DNA from: Promethearchaeota archaeon
Lineage (GTDB): Archaea; Asgardarchaeota; Hermodarchaeia; Hermodarchaeales; Hermodarchaeaceae
DNA length: 11,834 nt
Direction of reading: 5' to 3'
Assembly: GCA_048938295.1 (NCBI GenBank)
Contig: JBHLMI010000046.1
Coordinates: 1-11,834 of the forward strand
Shown: positions 1 to 11,834 of the stretch, in pieces
Layout: each line of letters begins with the position of its first letter
How positions within the stretch are numbered: position 1 is the first letter of the stretch
Translations under genes and position numbers: made by a program
Notes under the pieces: generated by a model
Database searches by the model: none
What the model was told of the DNA's origin: nothing
Seen by the model: only the letters and a program-made list of their open reading frames with translations

Positions 1-864
1 CTTTACTTGACGATTAAACTCGGTAAAGAAACCGTCGACCTTCTAATGGATCGCGCACCGTCGGATTTGACCGTTCCTATCCGGCAGGCGATTGAACAAA
101 TCGATGGCATCAAAGAGTGTAGCCGAATCCGACTGCGAAAAGCCGGACCAATGACCTTCGTCGATATTGTATGCCATGCCGAGCCAGCTATTCCCCTCCA
201 CACTGCACATGAGATTAGCGTCAATGCCCGAAAAACCGCAGAACAAATCATAGGTCGTGCCGATGTCGTCGTCCATATGGACCTCGTCTCAAAGCAGCAT
301 CCACACTTGGGTCAAACCATTCGAAAAGAAACGAAGAACTTCCCTTGGATCAAAGACCTCCAGGGCATCGACAGCTTCGAAACAGACGAGTACATCACCC
401 TTGTGTTAGAACTCCAGATTGACCCACAAATGAGACTCGACGAAGCCCATCACCTCGTTTCAAAATTTGAAACCCATATCCAATCACAATACCCTTTCAT
501 CAAAGAAATCACCACCCACCTTGAACCCAGCCGCGCTCCCACACCAACCACTCACGATCCTAAAACCATCGAAACCCAAATCATTGCACTCGTACACAAA
601 AGCCCACAACTACACAATTGCCATGACATCCAACTGATCCCCCTCTCAGAGAACCTCTACAACCTTACCTTCCACTGTGAAGCACCTCCAAGTTTCACAG
701 TCGAAGAACTCCACGCCGCAACCACCCTCCTCGAAGACGAAATCCGCGAACAACTCCCAATCTTCTCACAAATCATCATTCACAACGAACCACTAAAACG
801 CAAAACGAAGACCAAAAAGGATCAAAAAGAGAAGGAGATTCCTCCCAAAAAAACGAATACCTAA
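1..864 (+). CDS. Cation diffusion facilitator (FieF/CDF) family transporter, C-terminal part with three tandem ZT_dimer-like domains; 5' end outside the window
   Basis: Frame is open from base 1. End of the last TM helix (LYLTIKLGKETVDLLMD) is followed by three repeats of the CDF cytoplasmic pattern (R.RKAG..FVD...H..AH; LDEAHHLV...THLEP; LHNCHDI...IIIHNEP). The last 22 aa are a K-rich tail encoded by an actin relic. Confidence 0.85.
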   Translation, partial: LYLTIKLGKETVDLLMDRAPSDLTVPIRQAIEQIDGIKECSRIRLRKAGPMTFVDIVCHAEPAIPLHTAHEISVNARKTAEQIIGRADVVVHMDLVSKQHPHLGQTIRKETKNFPWIKDLQGIDSFETDEYITLVLELQIDPQMRLDEAHHLVSKFETHIQSQYPFIKEITTHLEPSRAPTPTTHDPKTIETQIIALVHKSPQLHNCHDIQLIPLSENLYNLTFHCEAPPSFTVEELHAATTLLEDEIREQLPIFSQIIIHNEPLKRKTKTKKDQKEKEIPPKKTNT

Positions 865-920
865 ATGCAGTGATGGATCACTCTAGCTCCTCACTCCATG
901 TCCTTATTTTTTAGTTACCT
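824..920 (-). repeat. Actin 3'-end relic R1 (strongly decayed)
   Basis: aaaaagagaaggagattcctcccaaaaaaacgaatac is followed by cta aat gca gtg atg gat cac tct agc tcc tca ctc cat. The minus strand reads M-E-*-G-A-R-V-I-H-H-C-I-* versus actin [12 protein letters not shown]. One hairpin arm (cctccc) and the spacer are retained, and agt tac (T,V) sits at 913-918. Confidence 0.7.
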
Positions 921-967
921 ACGTAAATCTGAAAGGTTAAAGAGGAAGCTTCCACCATTACCCACAA

Positions 968-1945
968 ATGCGGGTTTTATTAACCGGAGCCTTTGGAAAT
1001 ATCGGGGAAAGTACCCTATTAGCTCTATTTGAACAGAGCCATAAGATACGCTGCTTTGATTTACTCACAGCACAAAATGAGAAAACTGCCAAGAGACTGC
1101 TTAAGTATGGCGATTTTGACACTGTTTGGGGTGATGTTCGCGATGTCGACACCACTAGGAAGATCGTTGAGAACGTCGAATGTATCATCCATTTGGCGGC
1201 AATTCTTCCCCCTGTAAGCGAACGAGACGCTGAATTTACCAATGCCGTGAATGTTGGCGGCACAGCGCGGCTAATCGAAGCCGCAGAAACATTATCGGTA
1301 AAACCCAAATTCGTCTATGCTAGCTCCATATCAATATTTGGACCCACAATGCATCTTCCTCCACCAAGGACCGCGGAGGATCCCCTTAGTCCAACCGACG
1401 TCTATACCACCACGAAGGTCAAATGTGAAACGGCGCTCCGGGCGAGTACCCTTCCCTGGACCATCTTACGTTTGGCAGCTGTCCCTCCCATACGCATCGG
1501 TGGCGACATCGACCCGATGTTATTCGAAATGCCCCTTGACCAACGAATCGAATTTGTCCACACCCGCGATGTCGGCACAGCCTTTGCTAACGCTGTAACA
1601 GCCGACACCACGGGCAAGGTGCTCCTAATTGGAGGCGGGAAATCCAGTCAGATGCATCAACGCGAATTCATCGCCAAACCCCTTAACGCCATGGGAGTCG
1701 GAATGCTCCCTGAATCTGCCTTCCGCGTCGCCACGAAGCCTGAAGAGTGGTATTATACCGATTGGCTGGACACCACCGAATCCCAACACCTCTTGCAATA
1801 CCAAAACCACACCTTCGACGAATACGTCGACGACCTCAAAGACGCCATCGGATTCAAACGCTACTTCGCACGACTCTTCCGAGGTTTCGCCCAAAAACGC
1901 CTCCTCGCCCAATCACCCTACTACCAAGAACCGAAGAATTCCTAA
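968..1945 (+). CDS. NAD-dependent epimerase/dehydratase (extended SDR) family protein
   Basis: N-terminal Rossmann motif VLLTGAFGNIG, IIHLAA, NVGGT, YASSISIFG and catalytic YxxxK (YTTTK). Confidence 0.92.
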   Translation: MRVLLTGAFGNIGESTLLALFEQSHKIRCFDLLTAQNEKTAKRLLKYGDFDTVWGDVRDVDTTRKIVENVECIIHLAAILPPVSERDAEFTNAVNVGGTARLIEAAETLSVKPKFVYASSISIFGPTMHLPPPRTAEDPLSPTDVYTTTKVKCETALRASTLPWTILRLAAVPPIRIGGDIDPMLFEMPLDQRIEFVHTRDVGTAFANAVTADTTGKVLLIGGGKSSQMHQREFIAKPLNAMGVGMLPESAFRVATKPEEWYYTDWLDTTESQHLLQYQNHTFDEYVDDLKDAIGFKRYFARLFRGFAQKRLLAQSPYYQEPKNS

Positions 1946-2039
1946 ATAGGATTCCACTCACCATCCTAGGCTAAGCTTATCTGTACAACAAGAAGTATCA
2001 TGAAAGTCAGTAATGAATGGGATTACTCATTTCTGAAGG

Positions 2040-2750
2040 ATGGATAAGGTGACGCGTTGGTCACAACAAGAAATCAGCCAGTTAGCACCGATTTTAATGC
2101 AGATGGAGCAAGATCTGTACCCTCTTAACGAAAAACAAATTTGTGTTCTCTGTAGTGGATTTGGAGAACTCGTGTTTCGTCTGGATAAAAAAATGAGGCA
2201 AAAAGGAAAAATTATCGGACTTGAACGCAGCAGAAAAGCATTACAGCAAGCCAAAACCTTTGCAGCACAAAATCAATTTCGTGCTCAAAGTTCCTTTCAA
2301 TTAATAACTAAGAATAAACTCCCTTATGCGAACCACACCTTCGATGCCCTCGTCAGTGAATTTATTATCTATCCAACGCCACTTCCAACCGAAATTGGCC
2401 AGTTGGAGATGGCTCGCGTAGTAAAACCAGGTGGAACAATCCTTCTCACTGATGTTTTACGAACACACCCCATGTCTAAAAAGGAGACCCAGGCTCTCAA
2501 GCACATCGATATTCACTATCTTTGTGACGCTACATTTTCAGATTTTCAAACCTGGATGACAGCCGCAGGCCTCACTAACATTACAATTCGTGATTTTACA
2601 CCTTTATTGCAAACGATTTGGAGCCAACGGGCGGCAAAAAACACAGATAAGACCCACCGAGTGGGGTACAACCTCCTCCTTCACGATAACAAACTAAAAT
2701 TAGGTGAAGGCATTTTCTATATTTACGCCAAAGGCAATACACCCCCATAG
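2040..2750 (+). CDS. Class I SAM-dependent methyltransferase (Methyltransf_11/UbiE-like)
   Basis: Degenerate motif I (VLCSGFGEL), acidic post-I (IIGLE), LPYANHTFDALVSE, EMARVVKPGGTILLTD. Confidence 0.85.
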   Translation: MDKVTRWSQQEISQLAPILMQMEQDLYPLNEKQICVLCSGFGELVFRLDKKMRQKGKIIGLERSRKALQQAKTFAAQNQFRAQSSFQLITKNKLPYANHTFDALVSEFIIYPTPLPTEIGQLEMARVVKPGGTILLTDVLRTHPMSKKETQALKHIDIHYLCDATFSDFQTWMTAAGLTNITIRDFTPLLQTIWSQRAAKNTDKTHRVGYNLLLHDNKLKLGEGIFYIYAKGNTPP

Positions 2751-2808
2751 CCATCCGGTTTAATTCATAAGGTGAAACAGAATAGTATTGTATAGAGAGG
2801 CTGGGTTT

Positions 2809-3069
2809 ATGTCCGAACAAAGCATGAAAACACCCATTGGAAAAGTCACCAACTATTACTCAAAAATCAATGTAGCCGTCATCGAATTATCCGCCCCTTT
2901 GAAACAAGGTGACGAAATCGCCATCAAAGGCGCAACGACGGAGTTCACACAAACCGTGGAATCCATGCAAATCGAACGCAAAAACATTGAATCCTCACAA
3001 GCGGGTCAAGCCATCGGATTAAAAGTCAAAGAGCGAGTCCGAATAGGCGATACCGTCTACCGCATTTAG
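2809..3069 (+). CDS. Small translation-elongation-factor-like protein (EF-Tu domain II-like / U32 peptidase C-terminal-like beta-barrel)
   Basis: IGKVTNYYSKINVAVIELSAPLKQGDEIAIKG...VESMQIERKNIESSQAGQAIGLKV..RVRIGDTVY. ATG 2809 is preferred over the TTG at 2788. Confidence 0.8.
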   Translation: MSEQSMKTPIGKVTNYYSKINVAVIELSAPLKQGDEIAIKGATTEFTQTVESMQIERKNIESSQAGQAIGLKVKERVRIGDTVYRI

Positions 3070-3110
3070 TAAAACTAGCCCCCTGAGTTTCTAATCACAC
3101 CACTCAACCA

Positions 3111-3166
3111 AACAAAAAAAAGGAGGCCACGCGCCCCACCTGAAAACCGCGATGAAAGACAGTAGC
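3111..3166 (-). repeat. Actin 3'-end relic R2 (barely recognisable)
   Basis: A-tract plus ggagg half-hairpin, then ctg aaa acc gcg atg aaa gac agt agc. The minus strand reads A-T-V-F-H-R-G-F-Q versus actin A-G-V-I-H-R-C-F-* (5/9 identical). It occupies the expected intergenic position. Confidence 0.45.
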
Positions 3167-3232
3167 TCTGAGTGAATCTTTCTCTGCACGCTTGAAATTA
3201 ATAAAAACCCATACTAAAAAGAAGAGGCTGCA

Positions 3233-3988
3233 ATGATGTCTCAACGTGCCTTGGTACGTGAACCCGGAGCTCAATTTACTCACTGCATTTCTTCACACCC
3301 ATTACATCATACCGTCAATGTTGCTCGAGCACGAACACAACATTCAGAATACGTTAACATGTTAACTGAACTGGGGCTTGAAGTCATTCAGTTGCCTCGT
3401 GACGATACTTACCCAGATTCTTGTTTTGTTGAAGATACCGCTGTTATCCATTCTGGTAAAGCCCTCATAACCCGCCTTACCAAGCAGAGTCGTCGAGGCG
3501 AAGAAGATTCAGTTGAGGAACTACTTCAAGAGTATTTACCTGTGCAGCGCATCATGGCTCCAGGCACCCTCGAGGGAGGAGATGTGATTCGGTTACCCAC
3601 CCGAATAATCTGCGGGATTAGCCAGCGTACAAATCGTGCTGGCATGGAACAGATGCAGACTTATTTTGGCGTGCCTGTCGATACCATTACTGATCCACAC
3701 CTCATTCACCTGAAAAGTCATGTAACCTACCTGAACCATAACATCATGCTCACCACTCAGACCTACACACACCACCCAATCCTAGCTGACTTCGAAGTCC
3801 TCGTCGTCCCCGAAAACGAGCAATACGCAGCCAACACTCTCACCATCGACGACACCGTGATCATGCTTACCGGATACCCGCAAACCCAACAACTTATCAA
3901 AGACACAGGTTTCGAAGTTATCAGCCTAAATATAAGCGAAATCACCAAATGCGACGGCGCCCTAACCTGCCTATCACTCCTATTCTGA
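3233..3988 (+). CDS. Dimethylarginine dimethylaminohydrolase / amidinotransferase family protein
   Basis: PDSCFVED, LEGGDV, HLKS and C-terminal GALTCLS (catalytic Cys) motifs. Confidence 0.92.
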   Translation: MMSQRALVREPGAQFTHCISSHPLHHTVNVARARTQHSEYVNMLTELGLEVIQLPRDDTYPDSCFVEDTAVIHSGKALITRLTKQSRRGEEDSVEELLQEYLPVQRIMAPGTLEGGDVIRLPTRIICGISQRTNRAGMEQMQTYFGVPVDTITDPHLIHLKSHVTYLNHNIMLTTQTYTHHPILADFEVLVVPENEQYAANTLTIDDTVIMLTGYPQTQQLIKDTGFEVISLNISEITKCDGALTCLSLLF

Positions 3989-4014
3989 GCCGTTCGCATT
4001 CACACAGATAAACT

Positions 4015-4114
4015 AGAGAAAAAAGGGAGGATACGCCGCCCAAAAAAACGGTTACCGTAGAAGCCGCGAGGGATTACTCCAGCACCCTACTCCATACGCT
4101 CAATGCCGTAACCT
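4015..4114 (-). repeat. Actin 3'-end relic R3 (decayed)
   Basis: A-tract, imperfect hairpin gggagg-atacg-ccgccc, spacer aaaaaaacggttacc, then gta gaa gcc gcg agg gat tac tcc agc acc cta ctc cat. The minus strand reads M-E-*-G-A-G-V-I-P-R-G-F; cgt aac (T,V) sits at 4107-4112. Confidence 0.8.
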
Positions 4115-4180
4115 ACTAGGAATCTTCAAACACTCACTATTGGTTACAGCAAAAAGTTGACTGTGTTGATGTTATTAAAC

Positions 4181-4197
4181 ATTCAATTTGAATATAA
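4181..4197. promoter_or_regulatory. Inverted repeat ATTCAA-T-TTGAAT overlapping a TATA-like AATATAA upstream of acr3; candidate repressor operator/promoter
   Basis: Perfect 6-1-6 palindrome at 4181-4193, about 80 bp upstream of the ATG at 4271. Function is inferred. Confidence 0.35.
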
Positions 4198-4270
4198 GAC
4201 CAAAGAGTTGATATTTTCTTCTAATTCGGATAACCGTACTCGACTAGAATTCAAATACGGAATTAAAGCA

Positions 4271-5317
4271 ATGTCAAATAACAATGAAGCACCAGTTGTA
4301 ATGGGGCTTTTTGAGAAATATCTAACTTTTTGGATTCTTTCTTTTATGGCTCTAGGTTTGCTCGTTGGATGGCTCTTCCCCACATTCGCTATCACATTAG
4401 CTAGCCTGCAATTTGCAGGATTTTCAATTCCTATTGCGATTTGCCTTTTTTTCATGATGTTTCCAACCCTCATCAACATTGAGTACCGTGAAATCAAGTA
4501 CGCCGTGAAATATCCAAAACCCCTCATTATCACACTCGTAGCTAACTGGATAGTGAATCCCATCCTCGGTTTTGTGCTCGCCAGCACCATACTTGCAGCT
4601 AACCCACAATACGTATTCGGAATTATTCTACTTGCAGTATCACCGTGCACCGCAATGGTCCTCTTTTGGAATAAGTACGCCAAGGGCAACATCAATCTCG
4701 GATTGGTAATCACTTCCATTAACTCCATTCTCATCCTGTTCCTTTATGCACCCCTTGCCTCCTTCTTTATTGGCCTCTATGTTCCCGTACCCTTCATTAC
4801 TCTCCTAGTTGGCACTATGTTCTTCCTCGTCCTCCCCCTAATAACCGGGATTCTCACCAAACGTTATATCTACAAAACAAAAGGTCAAGAATGGTTTGCC
4901 AGATCCTTCAAGCCCATTCTTGACAAAATTGCCATCTTTGCTCTCCTTCTCACACTCGTCGTTCTCTTTTCCTTCCAAGGCCAAGTCATCCTCACCCAAC
5001 CGCTGAATGTCCTCTGGATCAGCAGTGTTCTCTTACTAAACTATGTTATCATGTTCACCTCCGTGTTTGTCATCTGCTACAAACTCGGATTTACCTACAA
5101 ACAAACCGTCACCGTCACAATCATCTCCAGCAGCTCACATTTTGAAATCGCCATAGCCACCGCCATCCTCCTCTTTGGCCCAGGATCCGCCGCCGCATTC
5201 GCCACCGTCATCGGCGTCCTCTGGGAAGTTCCACTCATGGTCGCCTTCATCAAACTCGCCCTCAGACTACAACCAAAGCTTTGGAAACCCCCAGCATCAA
5301 GTCCTCCGAACCCCTAA
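4271..5317 (+). CDS. acr3: ACR3 family arsenite efflux transporter
   Basis: FEKYLTFWI, IPIAICLFFMMFP, LVANW, GIILLAVSPCTAMVLFW, SSSHFEIAIATA, IGVLWEVPLM. ATG 4271 is preferred because the ORF-track extension from 4157 is not protein-like. Confidence 0.93.
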   Translation: MSNNNEAPVVMGLFEKYLTFWILSFMALGLLVGWLFPTFAITLASLQFAGFSIPIAICLFFMMFPTLINIEYREIKYAVKYPKPLIITLVANWIVNPILGFVLASTILAANPQYVFGIILLAVSPCTAMVLFWNKYAKGNINLGLVITSINSILILFLYAPLASFFIGLYVPVPFITLLVGTMFFLVLPLITGILTKRYIYKTKGQEWFARSFKPILDKIAIFALLLTLVVLFSFQGQVILTQPLNVLWISSVLLLNYVIMFTSVFVICYKLGFTYKQTVTVTIISSSSHFEIAIATAILLFGPGSAAAFATVIGVLWEVPLMVAFIKLALRLQPKLWKPPASSPPNP

Positions 5318-5333
5318 TCCCATTCACCCAACT

Positions 5334-5373
5334 AAAAAAAGAGAAAGGGGAGGCCAAGCCTCCCAAAGTTACT
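5334..5373 (-). terminator. Actin-type terminator: left (terminator/spacer) half of split relic R4, now terminating the 5369-5686 gene
   Basis: aaaaaaagagaaaggggaggccaagcctcccaaagttactt matches the actin A-tract, hairpin and spacer (gttactt versus gctactt in R6) but no actin codons follow. Confidence 0.8.
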
Positions 5374-5686
5374 TGAGGTCACTCACATCAATACCCGGTC
5401 GGAGTAATCGAATACTGATATCATCGAGAAGCCCGGAAGAAATGGCCATCATTTTTTGCACGTCCGCATTTCCATAGAACTTTGCGAACTTCTCCATGCT
5501 CTCAAAGGGGATCCAATACATGATTCGCCCAGTATTGTCCGCCCAAAACGTTACGTCAGGACTAATCAATCCCTTTTTCAGCCATTCCTCTGTTTTCCCA
5601 CCCAGCTTCTCTTGCCAATCTAACAGTTGTTTCCCTCGAACCTCATCCTTAGGTGTACGATACTCAACACACAAGACGCATTTCAA
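5369..5686 (-). CDS. Hypothetical protein (~105 aa)
   Basis: Open frame. A perfect Shine-Dalgarno GGAGGTGA (plus strand tcacctcc, 5692-5699) lies 5 nt before a TTG at 5686, giving MKCVLCVEYRTPKDE... The stop lies inside the relic spacer. Confidence 0.7.
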   Translation of the reverse strand: MKCVLCVEYRTPKDEVRGKQLLDWQEKLGGKTEEWLKKGLISPDVTFWADNTGRIMYWIPFESMEKFAKFYGNADVQKMMAISSGLLDDISIRLLRPGIDVSDLK

Positions 5687-5882
5687 TGATCTCACCTCCA
5701 TTCCAGTAACCATCGAAGTGAAAAAGCCCATGCAGGTAGAGTAACTGATGCCATTCGGCCCTCCAAAGGCTAGCCACCCTTATGACAAATATAGTATTTA
5801 TATCCGAGGTTTTACGAATTTCCACCCGACAAAAACCCAGAGGCTGCAGAAGTCAGGCCACAGCATTTCCTTAACACAACCA

Positions 5883-5937
5883 CTAGGGAAGCACCGATGA
5901 ATCACATCAGCACTCTGCCCCATGTATCATGTAACCC
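5883..5937 (-). repeat. Right (coding) half of split actin relic R4
   Basis: cta gg gaa gca ccg atg aat cac atc agc act ctg ccc cat gta ... tgt aac cc. The minus strand reads Y-M-G-Q-S-A-D-V-I-H-R-C-F. No hairpin is adjacent. Confidence 0.8.
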
Positions 5938-5996
5938 TCGTTGACCTGCGTAATTTTATATCCACCAAGTGTGTAGAACACCTGAGGAAGAGCAGA

Positions 5997-6443
5997 ATGG
6001 CCACAGCAGGTTATGCCCGATATGAAATCGAAGGTCACATCGAAGAAGTCATCAATGTTTTGGAGCCACAATTTGGCGACTCCTTCACCCGAACCTATGA
6101 ACATAATGGACGATGCGTCCTTGCCATCCTCCTCACCGATCAATACGCATTTCTAACCAACAGCCACGTTGCTGTCACAATCATCCTTCGAACCCACGAT
6201 TACCTAGTCATCATGGACGTCATCGGCTACGGCGGTAGCAGCGGATTGATAGGCCTCGACTGGGGAAGCAACAAAAGCATCGTCCACGACGTTCACAGAC
6301 ACCTAACTAAACATGGCTTCAAAATCACTCGCACCCAGTTCACCGAACTCTCCAAACACCATGACCATCGCATAAAACAGTACCCACGAACCGAACCCAT
6401 CCTCGCAAATGACCCAGACTACTTCGAACCGCCAATCGATTAG
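5997..6443 (+). CDS. Hypothetical protein, DUF6054-like
   Basis: The segment VAVTIIL...MDVIGYGGSSGLIGLDWGSNKSIV recalls the GG..G.F..DWGAE motif of DUF6054 (from memory, not searched). The start may be ATG 5997 or ATG 5922, which lies inside relic R4. Confidence 0.6.
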   Translation: MATAGYARYEIEGHIEEVINVLEPQFGDSFTRTYEHNGRCVLAILLTDQYAFLTNSHVAVTIILRTHDYLVIMDVIGYGGSSGLIGLDWGSNKSIVHDVHRHLTKHGFKITRTQFTELSKHHDHRIKQYPRTEPILANDPDYFEPPID

Positions 6444-6551
6444 CAAAATGGTAAATCGTCGAGAATATTCAATAGACCCAAAATTACCATTAGCACAGAA
6501 ACATGCTCGACTCAGAAAAAAAGCAGAACAATTCAAACAAAAAAGAACGCG

Positions 6552-6658
6552 AAAAAAGAATGAAAGGGGAGGCAAGCCTCCCAAAAAAATCGACTACTTT
6601 AGAAGCACCGATGAATAACATCAGCACCCTAGTCCAGGTATTCTTTCTTCGTAACCCA
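6552..6658 (-). repeat. Actin 3'-end relic R5 (type A UTR, internal nonsense codon)
   Basis: A-tract, perfect hairpin gggagg-caag-cctccc, stop at 6599-6601. The minus strand reads W-V-T-K-K-E-Y-L-D-*-G-A-D-V-I-H-R-C-F-*. Confidence 0.95.
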
Positions 6659-6744
6659 CTTCACTGTCGTATTTATCTACGGAAGTTGTTGAGTTTAGAC
6701 CACCAACTAAGCATAGTACCTCACCAAGAATTGTTGGAGCTAAA

Positions 6745-7203
6745 TCAGTGAGAACGAACAAAGGGAACATAATCAGTCATAGGCACTTCTCTCCCTAACG
6801 TCCGTAATGCCAAGACTAACTGTCCACGATGGTAGGTCGCATGATTTACCAAATGAAACACAAACTCCACCACCGATATTGAACGCCCCTGCCCTACCTC
6901 CACAACACCCTCAGAACCCAACTTCTTAAAATATCGCCTCCATCGCTGCTGCATCTCCTCAACCACACCAATAATCATGTTCACACTCATCGCAGAAAAC
7001 TCCGGTTCGTCCCAATCCTCACCGGACACATCCACCAACCACTCCCAATAATCATAGGCCAAATGGACACAAATATCACGGATACTCCGCGAATAAGCGC
7101 CCAACGGAGCAACACACTCCTCCTCCGAAACCTCAACCACCACACCAAAAACCACCTTGTCAGCCCAACTCAAGTATTCAAACAGTCGATCTACACACTC
7201 CAT
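6745..7203 (-). CDS. DinB/YfiT-like family protein
   Basis: SIRDICVHL and HLVNHATYHRGQ His triad, LRTLGREVPMTDY C-terminus. ATG 7203 is preceded by GGGTGGT. Confidence 0.88.
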   Translation of the reverse strand: MECVDRLFEYLSWADKVVFGVVVEVSEEECVAPLGAYSRSIRDICVHLAYDYWEWLVDVSGEDWDEPEFSAMSVNMIIGVVEEMQQRWRRYFKKLGSEGVVEVGQGRSISVVEFVFHLVNHATYHRGQLVLALRTLGREVPMTDYVPFVRSH

Positions 7204-7279
7204 AGACTTACCACCCAAACATCAAACCAATACAACCACCTACCACCCACAATAAATAAAAAATCAGGCTAAACCCCTA

Positions 7280-7387
7280 GAAAAGAGAAAAAAGGGAGGA
7301 CAAGCCTCCCAAAAATTCGGCTACTTAGAAGCAGCGATGAATTACGCCAGCACCCTGCTCCTTGTACTCCTTTTTGGTCACCCACAA
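7280..7387 (-). repeat. Actin 3'-end relic R6 (type A UTR, intact reading frame)
   Basis: A-tract, hairpin gggagg-acaag-cctccc, stop at 7325-7327. The minus strand reads [20 protein letters not shown], with 9 synonymous and 2 non-synonymous codon differences from actin. Confidence 0.97.
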
Positions 7388-7394
7388 CCATTTT

Positions 7395-8180
7395 TTAGGA
7401 AATCCGTTTGAGGAAATCTAAAACCACGGTATAAAATAGCTCACATCGTTTGTCTACATAATTCATGTGTGTCATATCGGGGATGATGGCTAATTCTGCC
7501 TGGGGTATCAAGCTAAGCATTTCGATCTGAGTTTCAAGGGGAACCGCTTCATCTTTATCCCCCACAATGAGGAGCGTAGGCACCTCAATCTTTGTAATAT
7601 CGTCCTGCGGATAGTTCGATGGATCCCTCCACATTTGAAGCTGCTTGTTAACGAAGATTTCCAAATACTCAGACCCGTAGACGTGACTATGCACAGCCCT
7701 CAAAGTCTTCTTAAGTTCTGGTTGGGAGTCAAGCCATTGGGGAACTGACAAAAGACCCTCCCGCGTCTTTTGTGTCAATTCATGCATTCCCCCACCCACA
7801 ACGAGGGCCGTAATGAAGTGAGGATACCGGATACCAATTTCTAACGCTATTTGCCCGCCATCACTCCAGCCACCGATAATCGGATTCACCAGATCTAAAG
7901 CCTTGGCTAACGCCACAACATCATCGGCCATGACTCGATAATTCATTAAGTCCTGGGGATTATCCGTGCGACCACACCCTCGACAATCCGGAGTAATTAC
8001 GCGAAAATGCTCTGCGAATCGCTTCCTAAGATCCCCCCACCCCAGACTCCCTGTAAGCAACCCACCATGGACCAGAATCAACGGAATCCCCTTGCCCCGA
8101 TCCTCATAATACATACGAAGCCCATTCGCATCCACATAGTGCCCAAACTCAGGTAACACCTTCAGCTCATCGTTCTTCAT
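7395..8180 (-). CDS. Alpha/beta fold hydrolase
   Basis: VHGG oxyanion motif, PDCRGCGRT, nucleophile elbow GWSDGG, GDKDE acid, THM His. SD-like GAGGTG before the ATG. Confidence 0.92.
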   Translation of the reverse strand: MKNDELKVLPEFGHYVDANGLRMYYEDRGKGIPLILVHGGLLTGSLGWGDLRKRFAEHFRVITPDCRGCGRTDNPQDLMNYRVMADDVVALAKALDLVNPIIGGWSDGGQIALEIGIRYPHFITALVVGGGMHELTQKTREGLLSVPQWLDSQPELKKTLRAVHSHVYGSEYLEIFVNKQLQMWRDPSNYPQDDITKIEVPTLLIVGDKDEAVPLETQIEMLSLIPQAELAIIPDMTHMNYVDKRCELFYTVVLDFLKRIS

Positions 8181-8321
8181 GTCAACACCTCGTAACCATT
8201 AAAGATCCCAGCCACTAAAAGGTTAGCCAGTAAGCCACCCAATAGATCCTTCTCTACCACTCAAACTTAGGCACATGAAACTAAGGGAAAAAGCAGAATA
8301 AATCGCACAACAAAGAGAACG

Positions 8322-8422
8322 AAAAAAAGAGAAAGAGGGGGAGGCACAGCCTCCCAATAATTGAAGACCGTTTAGAAGCAGCGATGAATAACACCAGCGC
8401 CCTGTTCCATGTATACTTTTTT
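8322..8422 (-). repeat. Actin 3'-end relic R7 (type B UTR)
   Basis: A-tract, hairpin gggaggc-aca-gcctccc, spacer aataattgaagaccgt, stop at 8372-8374. The minus strand reads [16 protein letters not shown]. Confidence 0.97.
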
Positions 8423-8590
8423 ACAAACCGAGTATATGCTTGAGATCATCACGGCACTTTTCGTTTAGCGAGAATGCCTAGCCTCTCCAGAATGTAATTA
8501 ACAGGCCTAGCTCTATGGCCTCCAGTAGTTTTCTTAGAGAATAATTGAGAAGATTAATAATCCACGTTCTCAACTCTATCTGTGATTGAA

Positions 8591-8878
8591 ATGACTCTCA
8601 AAACAAAACAGGCGAAACCAGCTCCAAGCAGCCCTGCCACTGCCATTATCCTAATTGAAGTCTTACCCAAAGAACATCTCAACGTCTTACATATCGTTAA
8701 ACAAGACCTTGAAAAAATTGAAGGCGTCAAAGATGTGTGCGGTATTTTTGGCACCTGGGACCTATCAGCCATCATCGAAGAAGAGACTTATGAATCCCTC
8801 AAAAACAAAGTCATCGACGAGGTACGCGCCGTGCCTGGCGTTGGCAAAACTGAAACGCTCCTCCGATTTCCACTCTAA
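8591..8878 (+). CDS. Lrp/AsnC ligand-binding (RAM) domain protein, no HTH
   Basis: TAIILIEV.P...LEKIEGVKDVCGIFGTWDLSAIIE...VIDEVRAVPGVGKTETL. Start is ATG 8591 (GTG 8582 is an alternative). Confidence 0.88.
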   Translation: MTLKTKQAKPAPSSPATAIILIEVLPKEHLNVLHIVKQDLEKIEGVKDVCGIFGTWDLSAIIEEETYESLKNKVIDEVRAVPGVGKTETLLRFPL

Positions 8879-8967
8879 CATTGACTCAAAACAGCGAAAT
8901 ACTATCCTTAAGGATGACTTCAACAACCATCAATAGAAGAACTATGCAGTGAATGAAAACATCCATT

Positions 8968-9063
8968 AGAAAAAAGAAAAAGGGGAGGCACAGCCTCCCA
9001 ATAGGTGAAGACCGTTTAGAAGCACCGGTGATTAACGCCAGCGCCCTGCTCCATATTTTTCTT
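8968..9063 (-). repeat. Actin 3'-end relic R8 (type B UTR)
   Basis: A-tract, hairpin gggaggc-aca-gcctccc, spacer aataggtgaagaccgt, stop at 9016-9018. The minus strand reads M-E-Q-G-A-G-V-N-H-R-C-F-*, with an apparent 3-nt deletion in the preceding codons. Confidence 0.95.
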
Positions 9064-9142
9064 CCCGCTTACACCAATGGATTATTATAAGAAATTAAAG
9101 AGCAAATGTTGCTATGAATCCCAGAATGGTTGGTGAAACCCA

Positions 9143-9538
9143 ATGAAGCAAAGTGCAGGAAGAATCACTCGTCTTTGGCTCGGTATGGTCGAAGTCTCGG
9201 ATCTAGACAAAGCCCTCCAATTTTACCATGAGGTTCTTGGCCTACCCATAGCACTCGACGCAAGAATGTTTGATCACGCCGAAGTTGGCCCCGAAGAACC
9301 GTTAGCAAAAATCGGCCTATATGCTAGTGGTAAAAAAGCAGAGAAAATACGCCGAACAGGCATTGTCTTGGATACCGATGACATCAACGCCCTATACAAT
9401 AGACTAACCCGACACGGAGTAAAATTTACCACAAAGCCGACTAAGATGCCATGGGGCGGCATATCCGCAAAATTCCTCGACCCCGACAACAACGAATTCG
9501 AGGTCGTGCAAGACCCCCACCATTACTCACGAAAATAA
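9143..9538 (+). CDS. VOC family (glyoxalase/bleomycin resistance) protein
   Basis: VSDLDKALQFYHEVLGL, IVLDTDDINALY..L...GVKF...P..MPWGG....FLDPDNNEFEV. Confidence 0.93.
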   Translation: MKQSAGRITRLWLGMVEVSDLDKALQFYHEVLGLPIALDARMFDHAEVGPEEPLAKIGLYASGKKAEKIRRTGIVLDTDDINALYNRLTRHGVKFTTKPTKMPWGGISAKFLDPDNNEFEVVQDPHHYSRK

Positions 9539-9553
9539 AACACCAACAACACC

Positions 9554-9657
9554 AAAAAAAGAGAAAGAGGGGGAGGCACAGCCTACCAATAAGTGAAGAC
9601 CGTCTAGAAGCAGCGGTGGATCACGCTAGCGCCCCGTTCCATGTATTCTTTCTTTGT
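9554..9657 (-). repeat. Actin 3'-end relic R9 (type B UTR), nearest to actin
   Basis: A-tract, hairpin with one mismatch (gcctacc), spacer aataagtgaagaccgt, TAG stop at 9604-9606. The minus strand reads T-K-K-E-Y-M-E-R-G-A-S-V-I-H-R-C-F-*. Confidence 0.97.
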
Positions 9658-9839
9658 AGCTACTGGTCAACTGGTGTTTGGTTTTAATCACCTTTTCCAG
9701 AGAACCATAACGCATAAAAGTAAACCAAATTCGGCGCTCCGCCAGAGGTGACCCCATCATAAAAATCGATTATGAAAAACTATCAACCTACCTCACCGAA
9801 GACGAACTAGATCAACTCGATGCCGCAACGTATCATGTC

Positions 9840-10202
9840 ATGCGCTTCAAATGGCTCGCCGACGACTGCACCACCTGGGACGACATAATCCACGCCCTGC
9901 ACCACCGAATCACCGCCATTGAAGACCTCAAAGCCCAAGGCGCAATCTTAGCCCAAAACAACAACGACGACTACATCTTCTATGAAATCCCCGGCGAAAC
10001 CGCCATCTTCGCCACCCTCACCACCCTCACTGACACTGAGTGCACCTTCCAACTCGACGATGGTGCCACCATCACCACCCCACGACCCGACTGGACCGAC
10101 TTCACACACGACCACCTCCACTGCCGCCTTGTCCTCCTCATCACCGAAACCGGCGAACTCAACGGCGTCTCCCTTCCCCACCACGTCCCGAGCGACCCAT
10201 AA
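9840..10202 (+). CDS. Hypothetical protein, translationally coupled to the downstream endonuclease gene
   Basis: 120-aa ORF whose stop overlaps the next ATG (TAATG, 10200-10204). The frame stays open upstream to 9711 with a protein-like sequence (KIDYEKLSTYLTEDELDQLD). Confidence 0.7.
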   Translation: MRFKWLADDCTTWDDIIHALHHRITAIEDLKAQGAILAQNNNDDYIFYEIPGETAIFATLTTLTDTECTFQLDDGATITTPRPDWTDFTHDHLHCRLVLLITETGELNGVSLPHHVPSDP

Positions 10203-11335
10203 TGATCACCGGCACACCCTACTTTCCTAAAAAATGTCCAACTTGTCCGATTTACCGCCTTCGCCAAACTACCCAGCCTGGCACTAAAGCCACCTATCAA
10301 CGCAAATTTGACATCACAACCGAACTCCAAATCGTCTGCGACTACACCTGCAAAGAAAAAAGCAGCCTCCAACTTGCGCAAGAAAAAGACTGCACCCAAG
10401 ACACCATCCAAAACATCGTCCGCAGATTCAATAAACCCCTCCGCTCTTTCCGCGACGCCCAACTCCTCCGCCGCGGATCCAAAGACCTCACCTTCCCCCT
10501 CTCACCCGAAGTCCCCCAGCTCCTCCAACACCCTAAGGTAAAGCCCTTTCTACCGCAATTAATAGCTGTCATGCTCCTCACCGACGGTGTCGCCGGCTAC
10601 CGCCAAGGTCACCGCCCTTACCTTACCTTCACCAATAAAGCGGAAACCCTCCACGCCATCTTCGCCGACCTCATCCACTTCCACTACAACCAACCCCCAT
10701 CCGCCTACTTCAAAAAATACTGGAGCAGAGCAAAGAAACAAGGTTCCTGTGCCTTCTACACTACCTATAACCGCATAGCCGACACACATCCCATCCTTAA
10801 CGAACTCCTTACACTCAGCCCCACATATCGGACACAACCCAAACTCGGACAATCATGGGAAAACTACCTCCAGCAAACCCCACAACCCACACTCCAATTC
10901 TTATCAAACCCAACCATACCTACACAAATTCACAACTTCGTAATCCAACTAGGCATGAGCGCCGAAGGTTCCATTAGCCCCATCTTTGTGTCAGATAGTC
11001 GATTCCCTTATCCACATCTAACATTGGGCTGCAAACATCCATTACTCAAAGAACAATGGAAAACATATCTCGAAATCCAAGGCTTTTCATTCAACAAAAC
11101 CACCGAAATGATTGAAACCGCACAACTCCAGCAAGCGAAGAAATTCCTCAATCTTGGTGGTTTTTTCAACGGTGTAAAAGTGAAAGCTGGCAGTTATTAT
11201 GAAGGACTCGACAAACAAGCCGTCTTAAAAGCAATACTCATTGACAGAAAAACCCATCCAATCGACCCAGCACTTCTAAAACAGGAAAAACATAAAATCT
11301 TACGCCAACGAGCATTACAATTCAAAAAATCCTAA
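10202..11335 (+). CDS. Free-standing double-motif LAGLIDADG (homing/intein-type) endonuclease-like protein with N-terminal CxxC and HTH
   Basis: Motif 1 LIAVMLLTDG (10559-10588) and motif 2 VIQLGMSAEG (10940-10969) both keep the acidic residue. HTH-like IVCDYTCKEKSSLQLAQEKDCTQDTIQNIVRRFNKPLRS and CPTC lie upstream. Start is set at ATG 10202 (377 aa) by the TAATG coupling. Confidence 0.75.
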   Translation: MITGTPYFPKKCPTCPIYRLRQTTQPGTKATYQRKFDITTELQIVCDYTCKEKSSLQLAQEKDCTQDTIQNIVRRFNKPLRSFRDAQLLRRGSKDLTFPLSPEVPQLLQHPKVKPFLPQLIAVMLLTDGVAGYRQGHRPYLTFTNKAETLHAIFADLIHFHYNQPPSAYFKKYWSRAKKQGSCAFYTTYNRIADTHPILNELLTLSPTYRTQPKLGQSWENYLQQTPQPTLQFLSNPTIPTQIHNFVIQLGMSAEGSISPIFVSDSRFPYPHLTLGCKHPLLKEQWKTYLEIQGFSFNKTTEMIETAQLQQAKKFLNLGGFFNGVKVKAGSYYEGLDKQAVLKAILIDRKTHPIDPALLKQEKHKILRQRALQFKKS

Positions 11336-11350
11336 TCTCCACTCACACGA

Positions 11351-11399
11351 AATAAAAAAAATGAAAAAGGGGAGGCAAGCCTCCCAAAAATCAGCTACC
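11351..11399 (-). terminator. Actin 3' UTR and terminator: hairpin GGGAGG-CUUG-CCUCCC followed by U-tracts (type A UTR)
   Basis: Plus strand gggagg caag cctccc at 11370-11385, flanked by A-runs at 11351-11368 (U-tract on the minus strand), 14 nt after the actin stop. Confidence 0.85.
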
Positions 11400-11834
11400 T
11401 TAGAAGCACCGATGAATAACACCAGCGCCCTGTTCCATGTATTCTTTCTTTGTCACCCACATTCGCTGAAACGTCTTTAGAGAGGCTAGGATGCTGCCGC
11501 CGATCCAGACGGAGTACATGCGTTCGGGTGGGGCGACGATTTTGACTTCGACGTTTTCGGGGATGGATTCGATGATTTCTTTGCGGAGGCGTTCTTTGAG
11601 TCCGGGGAACATGGTGGTGCCGCCGGAGAGGACGATGTTCGCGTAGAGGTCGCGGCGGAGGTCGACGTCGCATTTGTGGACGGCTTCGACGATGGCGTCG
11701 TCGAGGGGTTGGGCTTCGATGCCGATGGCGCCGGGGTTGAATAGGACTTCGGGTCCCTGGAAGCGTTCGGCGCCGACGGTGAGGGTGGAGCCGTCGGGGA
11801 GCATGTATTTCTTTTCCATGCCGGCGACTTTTTC
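11400..11834 (-). CDS. Eukaryote-like actin (Asgard/lokiactin-like), C-terminal ~145 codons; 5' part outside the window
   Basis: [67 protein letters not shown], terminal HRCF. High GC with C-ending codons is consistent with high expression. The prokaryotic gene neighbourhood argues for an archaeon. Confidence 0.95.

Follow-up and report, generated by a model that had tools for sequence, protein, structure and literature searches.

A common breakpoint in copies of the actin 3' end of an Asgard archaeon as the candidate insertion site of a tail-replacing homing element

In the 'intronless homing' of the phage T4 Seg and Mob enzymes the enzyme gene lies beside its target gene, polymorphism in the sequence confers immunity, and flanking markers undergo co-conversion. 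The WHO elements of yeast target FBA1, whose 3' end is replaced at every homing event; the FBA1 3' fragments left behind begin just beside the mapped cut, the newest unit in a WHO cluster lies nearest the gene, and the 3' part of FBA1 is unusually diverse (2020, PMC7282813). Fungal mitochondrial mORFs present a gene core with a foreign C-terminus, then an endonuclease ORF and a displaced relic of the native C-terminus, with examples in Allomyces atp6 and in atp6, atp9, cox2 and nad3 of Glomus (PMC3630166).

Here we analyse a window of 11,834 bp (the whole stretch of DNA under study, equal to the complete contig C18) from an Asgard metagenome-assembled genome of 2.5 Mb in 66 contigs, G000. An actin gene runs off one end of the window, and behind it lies an array of partial copies of the actin 3' end, which we call relics, with unrelated genes between them. 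From comparison of these sequences we propose, with a probability of about 0.6, that the breakpoint common to the relics is where a homing element cuts and inserts, exchanging the actin tail for its own with every invasion. Such an element would comprise a new actin tail, made up of 58 coding nt, the stop and a terminator hairpin, and a LAGLIDADG gene on the other strand. The putative enzyme would cut a sensitive actin allele in the Gln-Arg-Met-Trp codons, and the break would be repaired from the element-bearing actin locus of a diverged relative. Actin would stay whole through the new tail supplied by the incoming DNA, while the old tail, beginning at the cut, would be pushed downstream as a relic. 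Repeated rounds would stack relics, with older endonuclease genes decaying to stumps, and the relics may then act as portable homology through which cassettes have been lost and perhaps also exchanged.

The actin locus resembles WHO in several respects. In both, the 3' neighbour of a strongly conserved and highly expressed host gene is an endonuclease gene, here a candidate one, and host 3'-end fragments have a common start, which in WHO lies beside the mapped cut and here beside a putative one. Both form tandem clusters in which the newest unit adjoins the gene and older endonuclease genes decay, and in both the 3' part of the host gene shows raised diversity and discordant histories. The two differ in host (here an archaeon), in target (here actin) and in relic length (58 coding nt as opposed to ~400 bp), and raised diversity here extends a further ~57 codons 5' of the site. 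The putative enzyme is a free-standing protein with HTH/zinc and double-LAGLIDADG regions and without an intein-like (Hint) part, encoded on the opposite strand; as it lacks the Hint region plus C-terminal zinc finger that define the WHO/HO family, we do not count it as a member. Many intact accessory genes also occupy the actin array, whereas these are absent from WHO and mORF elements. The mORFs share with our locus the order of gene core, new tail, endonuclease ORF and old tail, the tails being alike in protein and diverged in DNA. Unlike the actin array, however, they belong to organelles, mostly with a single copy per gene, are frequently in phase with the host gene and carry no multi-unit cargo array. 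T4 Seg/Mob systems differ from the actin array in having neither a duplicated gene end nor a relic stack. A search of the literature on Asgard archaea or Hodarchaeales together with homing endonucleases found no description of such an element.

The window sees only part of this locus. A 69-kb contig (L046), from another assembly of an almost identical strain, carries the whole of it, with 16 mismatches in 11.6 kb against the window, and its complete actin has 380 codons. Contig C11 adjoins the left end of C18 through an exact 77-nt overlap, which extends the array by at least 16 kb beyond the window. Contigs break inside actin in multiple assemblies of the genus (the window at 11456-11834, G004:C51, G001:C21 and G010:C32/C9), with a jump in Logan depth at these breaks. 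The features of the actin end are as follows.

11400..11834, minus strand: actin, C-terminal 144 codons and stop (Pfam PF00022, E 1.8e-53), truncated by the contig end
11352..11460, minus strand: working actin tail (58 nt of CDS, stop, 3' UTR; nhmmer 100), the unit copied in every relic
11369-11385, minus strand: hairpin of the working tail (folded), followed by a T-run
11451..11468, minus strand: breakpoint zone in the Q-R-M-W-V-T codons, centred on ATG TGG; candidate endonuclease cut and insertion site

Arrays also lie behind actin in the same-genus genomes G012, G014, G005, G004, G010, G011 (apparently the same organism as GCA_048886565), G006 and G003, as well as in the more distant GCA_976559025. 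Dozens of further relics come from seven related genomes, and the G014 array has at least 13 across ~25 kb. The representative of the sister genus, G016, has neither the endonuclease gene nor relics, and its conserved flank genes lie 2 kb from actin, compared with ~22 kb in G000. Among relatives, actin is 97-98% identical as against 55-80% for the endonuclease protein. The public runs listed as containing the locus are all DNA runs, available as Logan contigs, with no RNA runs among them. Four of them contain some weak alternative relic-relic joints with short sides, which co-occurring relatives or repeats may explain.

In a search with a relic profile (nhmmer), C18 yielded nine further copies of the actin 3' end, C11 yielded two decayed ones (one relic remnant and one hairpin-only trace), and the rest of the 2.5-Mb genome yielded none. 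Every relic has the orientation of actin. The relic unit comprises 58 nt of CDS, the stop and a 3' UTR of ~45-50 nt that contains a GGGAGGC...GCCTCCC hairpin and a T-run, and the CDS-side ends in the window lie near plus-strand positions 922, 4116, 5939, 6659, 7385, 8432, 9076 and 9664.

9552..9664, minus strand: relic R9 (nhmmer 92.9), clear homology from 9657, class-2 UTR
8966..9076, minus strand: relic R8 (nhmmer 90.0), homology from ~9064-9066
8322..8432, minus strand: relic R7 (nhmmer 94.1), homology from ~8422-8429
7276..7386, minus strand: relic R6 (nhmmer 99.6), starting at the common breakpoint
6551..6659, minus strand: relic R5 (nhmmer 88.0), starting at the common breakpoint and possibly extending 8 nt more
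5865..5939, minus strand: relic R4 (nhmmer 40.6), decayed, with an internal deletion
5332..5369, minus strand: hairpin-only remnant of a relic UTR (nhmmer E 1.5e-5)
4008..4116, minus strand: relic R3 (nhmmer 60-70), beginning GTAGGTTAC at the common breakpoint
812..922, minus strand: relic R1 (nhmmer 57-67), beginning GTAGGTAAC at the common breakpoint

The peptide of R6 is intact bar one residue, with six silent codon changes and one replacement. An extra, very decayed relic at 3114-3167, behind a small OB-like gene, was considered and set aside as not significant (nhmmer E 2.1); if real, it would split the methyltransferase and OB-like genes into separate units. In the window, relic quality declines with distance from actin (rho -0.85, p 0.002). 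This gradient is not clean in G014 or G012, and we reject it as a general rule.

The position at which actin homology stops was estimated by local alignment to a reference that includes 300 nt of upstream actin sequence and by a change-point estimate in which every working allele was allowed at each position, applied to 33 well-preserved relics from seven genomes. Homology starts at the G complementary to 11460, written AT/GTGGGTGAC on the minus strand with the slash at the boundary. Starts within -7 to +3 nt of this G were found for 21 of the 33 relics; ten more are 5-13 nt shorter, except for one of them that is instead 12 nt longer, which brings 31/33 within -12 to +13 nt. The last two contain indels and start at ~0 by eye. 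No well-preserved relic (0/33) starts beyond -12, giving a one-sided spread with a hard limit and a tail of shorter relics (+5 to +13), as would be expected of a broken end that is sometimes eroded before joining. The UTR-side end is by comparison ragged, with homology ending anywhere from just past the hairpin to ~170 nt beyond.

About 20 distinct, unrelated neighbour sequences abut relics at the breakpoint. With so many different partners at one point, the junction must have formed many times rather than have been inherited once. Some relics are orthologous between species, which lowers the independent count to these ~20 distinct junctions; the chance of 20 independent ends falling within a 16-nt zone of a 1140-nt gene is ~1e-35. 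On the cargo side of the junction no conserved sequence or arm was found from relic to relic. Methionine and tryptophan codons are non-degenerate, and ATGTGG is thus the only hexamer in the stretch without a possible silent change, a property that would suit an endonuclease target. A weak pseudo-palindrome, TtTCAgC-GAATGTG-GgTGAcA, is centred on the breakpoint and could be due to chance.

An earlier note on this DNA had claimed that homology to actin stops in a narrow common zone, and our alignment of the relics to actin bears this out, with endpoints clustered rather than broadly dispersed. The endpoints that it gave for the window agree with ours to within 1-3 nt, its shorter R7, R8 and R9 are indeed 7-12 nt shorter, and the boundary falls at the core that it predicted, minus-strand ATGTGGGTGACA. 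Its expectation of the same junction in relatives also holds, since the boundary recurs in six further genomes, including GCA_976559025, whose endonuclease is 55% identical. Although the common zone stands, the length of the tail is here corrected to 58 nt of coding sequence plus stop, followed by the UTR. As for its proposal of an attachment or cut site, a cut site fits better than a recombinase attachment site because a LAGLIDADG-fold gene always lies beside the actin tail, the cargo side is unconserved, the boundary is a hard limit with shorter relics, and the array contigs hold no integrase.

The sole assembled non-working copy that reaches more than 12 nt further into actin is the actin of G010:C32 (L038 19380-19978), in which the reading frame is broken. 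Two fillers interrupt it: one of 31 nt follows ...VAPP, 23 codons before the breakpoint, and one of 18 nt falls precisely on the breakpoint, between the copies of an imperfect 12-nt repeat, CAGCGxAxxTGG (Gln-Arg-x-Trp codons). This copy may be a real broken copy or pseudogene, or an assembly path through a longer relic.

The gene that converges on actin is the candidate for the enzyme of the proposed element, and it has a conserved neighbour and decayed counterparts within the array.

10202..11335, plus strand: candidate homing endonuclease, 377 aa, converging on actin, 65 nt from its stop
9768..10202, plus strand: gene preceding the endonuclease gene, its stop overlapping the start of the latter, without a Pfam family
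8233..8382, plus strand: endonuclease stump beside R7, the last ~50 codons from aa 344, P0010-like (tblastn E 1e-12)
6448..6582, plus strand: endonuclease stump beside R5, the last ~35-45 codons

The 377-aa protein has N-terminal Cys4 (four conserved cysteines) and HTH-like helices, followed by a double LAGLIDADG domain. It has no Pfam match, including to Hint or intein families, a search of PDB sequences with the endonuclease profile gave nothing useful, and it has 15 relatives among 5.8 billion proteins. The 50 best Foldseek matches of its AlphaFold (AF2) model (pLDDT 84) are all LAGLIDADG enzymes or maturases, with a probability of ~1 for I-SmaMI, I-AniI, I-Tsp061I and others, and VIA gave Z 10-13.7 over residues 99-377 for I-Tsp061I, PI-PfuI, I-DmoI and I-OnuI, and also for WhiA. 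These matches agree with two alpha-beta-beta-alpha-beta-beta-alpha domains packed via their motif helices, the arrangement characteristic of the LAGLIDADG fold. D128 (LLTDG) and E255 (MS.EG) are invariant in 12 homologues, and the model and motif placement put them at the C-terminal ends of motif helices 114-128 and 241-255. WhiA is a LAGLIDADG-derived transcription factor without nuclease activity. Its presence among the best matches of the predicted structure and the protein's want of a Pfam match of its own both count against reading the protein as a nuclease.

The gene lies beside actin in all seven genomes with an assembled actin end (G000, G012, G014, G005, G004, GCA_048886565 and GCA_976559025), and in G010 a LAGLIDADG paralogue of 25-28% identity occupies the same place. 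On the homologue contigs P0005 and P0012, seen as gene maps, a convergent gene is truncated at the contig end, as expected for actin, and on P0007, likewise seen as a gene map, no gene is called between the endonuclease gene and the contig end. In G005 the endonuclease gene (L004 / G005:C229 5667-6761) has one in-frame TAA, possibly a first step of decay. The upstream gene is conserved in four genomes (62-77% identity in G014, G012 and G005); it was not found in G004, and other genes take its place in GCA_976559025.

C-terminal stumps of older endonuclease-like genes adjoin five relics, where they make up the additional homology beyond the hairpin. They retain the last 21-57 codons, beginning at residues 321, 330, 344, 360 and 374, and the confinement of all five to the last ~57 codons would have p ~8e-5 if ends were random, which hints at a second constraint or further rule. 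More distant homologues, in another Asgard family, match PF14528 only at or just below the cut-off. One of these, a 499-aa protein with an HTH and a weak PF14528 match (L058, G312:C6), is flanked by a 49-nt direct repeat, 90% identical, at 445-493 and 2585-2633. A zinc-ribbon/CdvA-like gene has the second copy as its 5' start; at this locus the head rather than the tail of a gene seems to be duplicated around the endonuclease gene.

The relics record a history of selection. Those scoring at least 65 (nhmmer) carry 86 silent and 52 replacement codon changes relative to the closest working tail, and multiple relics retain the entire 19-residue peptide with 4-6 silent changes; the eight best-preserved, a subset picked by outcome, have 37 silent against 4 replacement changes. 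The UTRs fall into two classes, each of which is the working UTR in some species. Together, the silent bias and the working status of both UTR classes indicate that the relics were working tails of diverged alleles until shortly before displacement. In working actin genes of five species, silent polymorphism affects 42% of codons in the body. It rises to 71% both in the tail and over the 57 codons that precede it, which together are the last 76 codons of the L046 actin (p 1e-5). Two genomes may be similar ahead of the breakpoint yet distant beyond it, and vice versa, with too few sites for trees. The pattern of diversity fits repair from diverged donors with co-conversion around a break. A drop in GC3 at the breakpoint in G000 (8/17 against 254/328, p 0.008) was considered as proof of a foreign tail and counted as weak, since it is also present in the element-free G016.

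Between the relics lies the cargo, mostly one gene per unit.

1..9538, either strand: cargo genes between relics (Pfam)

These genes encode a CDF transporter, NAD epimerase, methyltransferase, a small OB-like protein, a DDAH-like protein, an SBF/ACR3-type transporter, orf120, DUF6054, DinB, alpha/beta hydrolase, an AsnC-like protein and glyoxalase. The cargo leans towards stress and detoxification functions (the CDF and SBF/ACR3-type transporters, DinB, glyoxalase, alpha/beta hydrolase and methyltransferase). No cargo gene has a close paralogue (>33% identity) elsewhere in the genome, and we reject copying from the same genome by template-switch repair on the grounds that paralogues are at most 33% identical. 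Sister species have cargo genes in common, in different orders. In G012 the AsnC and hydrolase units are missing, and its hybrid relic begins R8-like and turns R6-like within the UTR hairpin region; in G005 three units are missing, and its hybrid relic changes partner inside the tail CDS. Such variable crossover points indicate ordinary homologous recombination between relics and not exchange at a fixed core.

That recombination between relics demonstrably occurs lends some weight to a single founding duplication, in which the boundary was set once and later relics arose by unequal crossing-over without recurrent cutting or recombination; the orthology of multiple relics between species, which makes for fewer independent events than relics, points the same way. 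Unequal exchange would nevertheless carry flanking sequence with it, yet ~20 relics meet unrelated DNA at the boundary. Moreover, the relics differ in silent-site alleles and in two UTR classes, both working in some species, and endonuclease stumps of different lineages lie beside different relics, so that we hold this history to be unlikely. The clustering of endpoints bears still more heavily on 5'-truncated retrocopies of actin mRNA or random pseudogene fragments. Their origin would account for the presence of 3' ends alone, but dispersed endpoints would then be expected, some relics run past the terminator hairpin into the convergent endonuclease gene, and no reverse transcriptase was seen in the locus; we reject this scarcely credible origin on the clustered endpoints.

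The organisation of the array recalls sedentary chromosomal integrons, which likewise have a polar array, mostly one-gene accessory cassettes, a repeated site of ~110 nt and species-variable content. It is conceivable, if distinctly unlikely in our judgement, that the relic is itself the site, at which an unlinked recombinase (e.g. XerA-type) moves circular one-gene cassettes at GTGGGTGAC, with the LAGLIDADG gene as a passenger. One-gene units, co-oriented sites, accessory and detoxification cargo and the same cassettes in different order in sister species would all follow. Unlike an integron, however, the actin array has no IntI, no attC fold or R/L boxes and a repeat that is a copy of the host gene end, and its indel crossovers fall at variable positions, the two cassette indels having crossed over at different internal relic positions (UTR hairpin region and tail CDS). 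Tyrosine recombinases (PF00589) are absent from the array contigs of six genomes and from within 10 kb on L046; each of the six has one Xer-like gene, on a different contig from the array. No attC-like hairpin spans the whole site (z -0.3 to -2.4), which forms just a 6-7 bp terminator-like hairpin, and the window contains no Rfam families. The cargo side of the junction has no conserved arm, and some relics are 7-13 nt short, whereas recombinase joints are exact. Another rival, which we regard as very improbable, is that small elements moved by an integrase, or satellites of these that lack one, integrated one after another through an attP bearing the actin 3' end, as elements that target tRNA genes do. 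In its favour, the block of identity extends from a fixed point past the gene end and restores the gene, with a tandem stacking reminiscent of the arrays found at tRNA genes; against this, the same array contigs of six genomes and 10 kb on L046 hold no integrase in or near the arrays, no conserved arm that could represent inverted att binding arms was found on the cargo side of the junctions, the units measure 0.6-1.9 kb and hold one accessory gene of housekeeping type, the boundary is not quite sharp, and the LAGLIDADG gene is the sole conserved resident.

The homing of an element into actin thus remains the reading that we favour, at the probability given above. It draws on the boundary, the LAGLIDADG-fold gene and its stumps, the selection history of the relics, the silent diversity, the decay gradient of the window and the element-free G016. 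Further points weigh on the other side, besides the WhiA match, the narrow range of the stumps, the unclean decay gradient in G014 and G012 and the low tail GC3 of G016. With the working tail in place the sequence spanning the breakpoint is intact again, and only silent differences could then confer self-immunity, which counts against homing. The units hold mostly intact, unrelated cargo rather than dead endonuclease genes, which the model does not explain and which also counts against it. Finally, the link between endonuclease and relics comes from one genus and is effectively one phylogenetic observation. With regard to the cargo, we tentatively suggest that the putative endonuclease break could itself be the engine of gene capture, the repair that restores actin also fixing foreign DNA behind it, though we think this doubtful.

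If the homing reading is true, this would apparently be the first homing element on an archaeal chromosome, as far as we found, that replaces the 3' end of a gene, by a mechanism so far demonstrated in yeast nuclei alone (WHO/HO), with fungal mitochondria as an inferred case. Its target, actin, is a signature gene common to Asgard archaea and eukaryotes. The reading would explain the mosaic actin 3' end with its raised silent diversity, the breaks of metagenome assemblies in actin, and the 20-kb island of accessory genes that has grown between actin and its old neighbour, and it offers a concrete target sequence for an uncharacterised family of LAGLIDADG enzymes. Were gene capture also to hold, a homing endonuclease and exchange between relics would do what integrase and attC do in integrons, and if cargo really enters through the break, the actin array would represent an integrase-free route to integron-like gene arrays.
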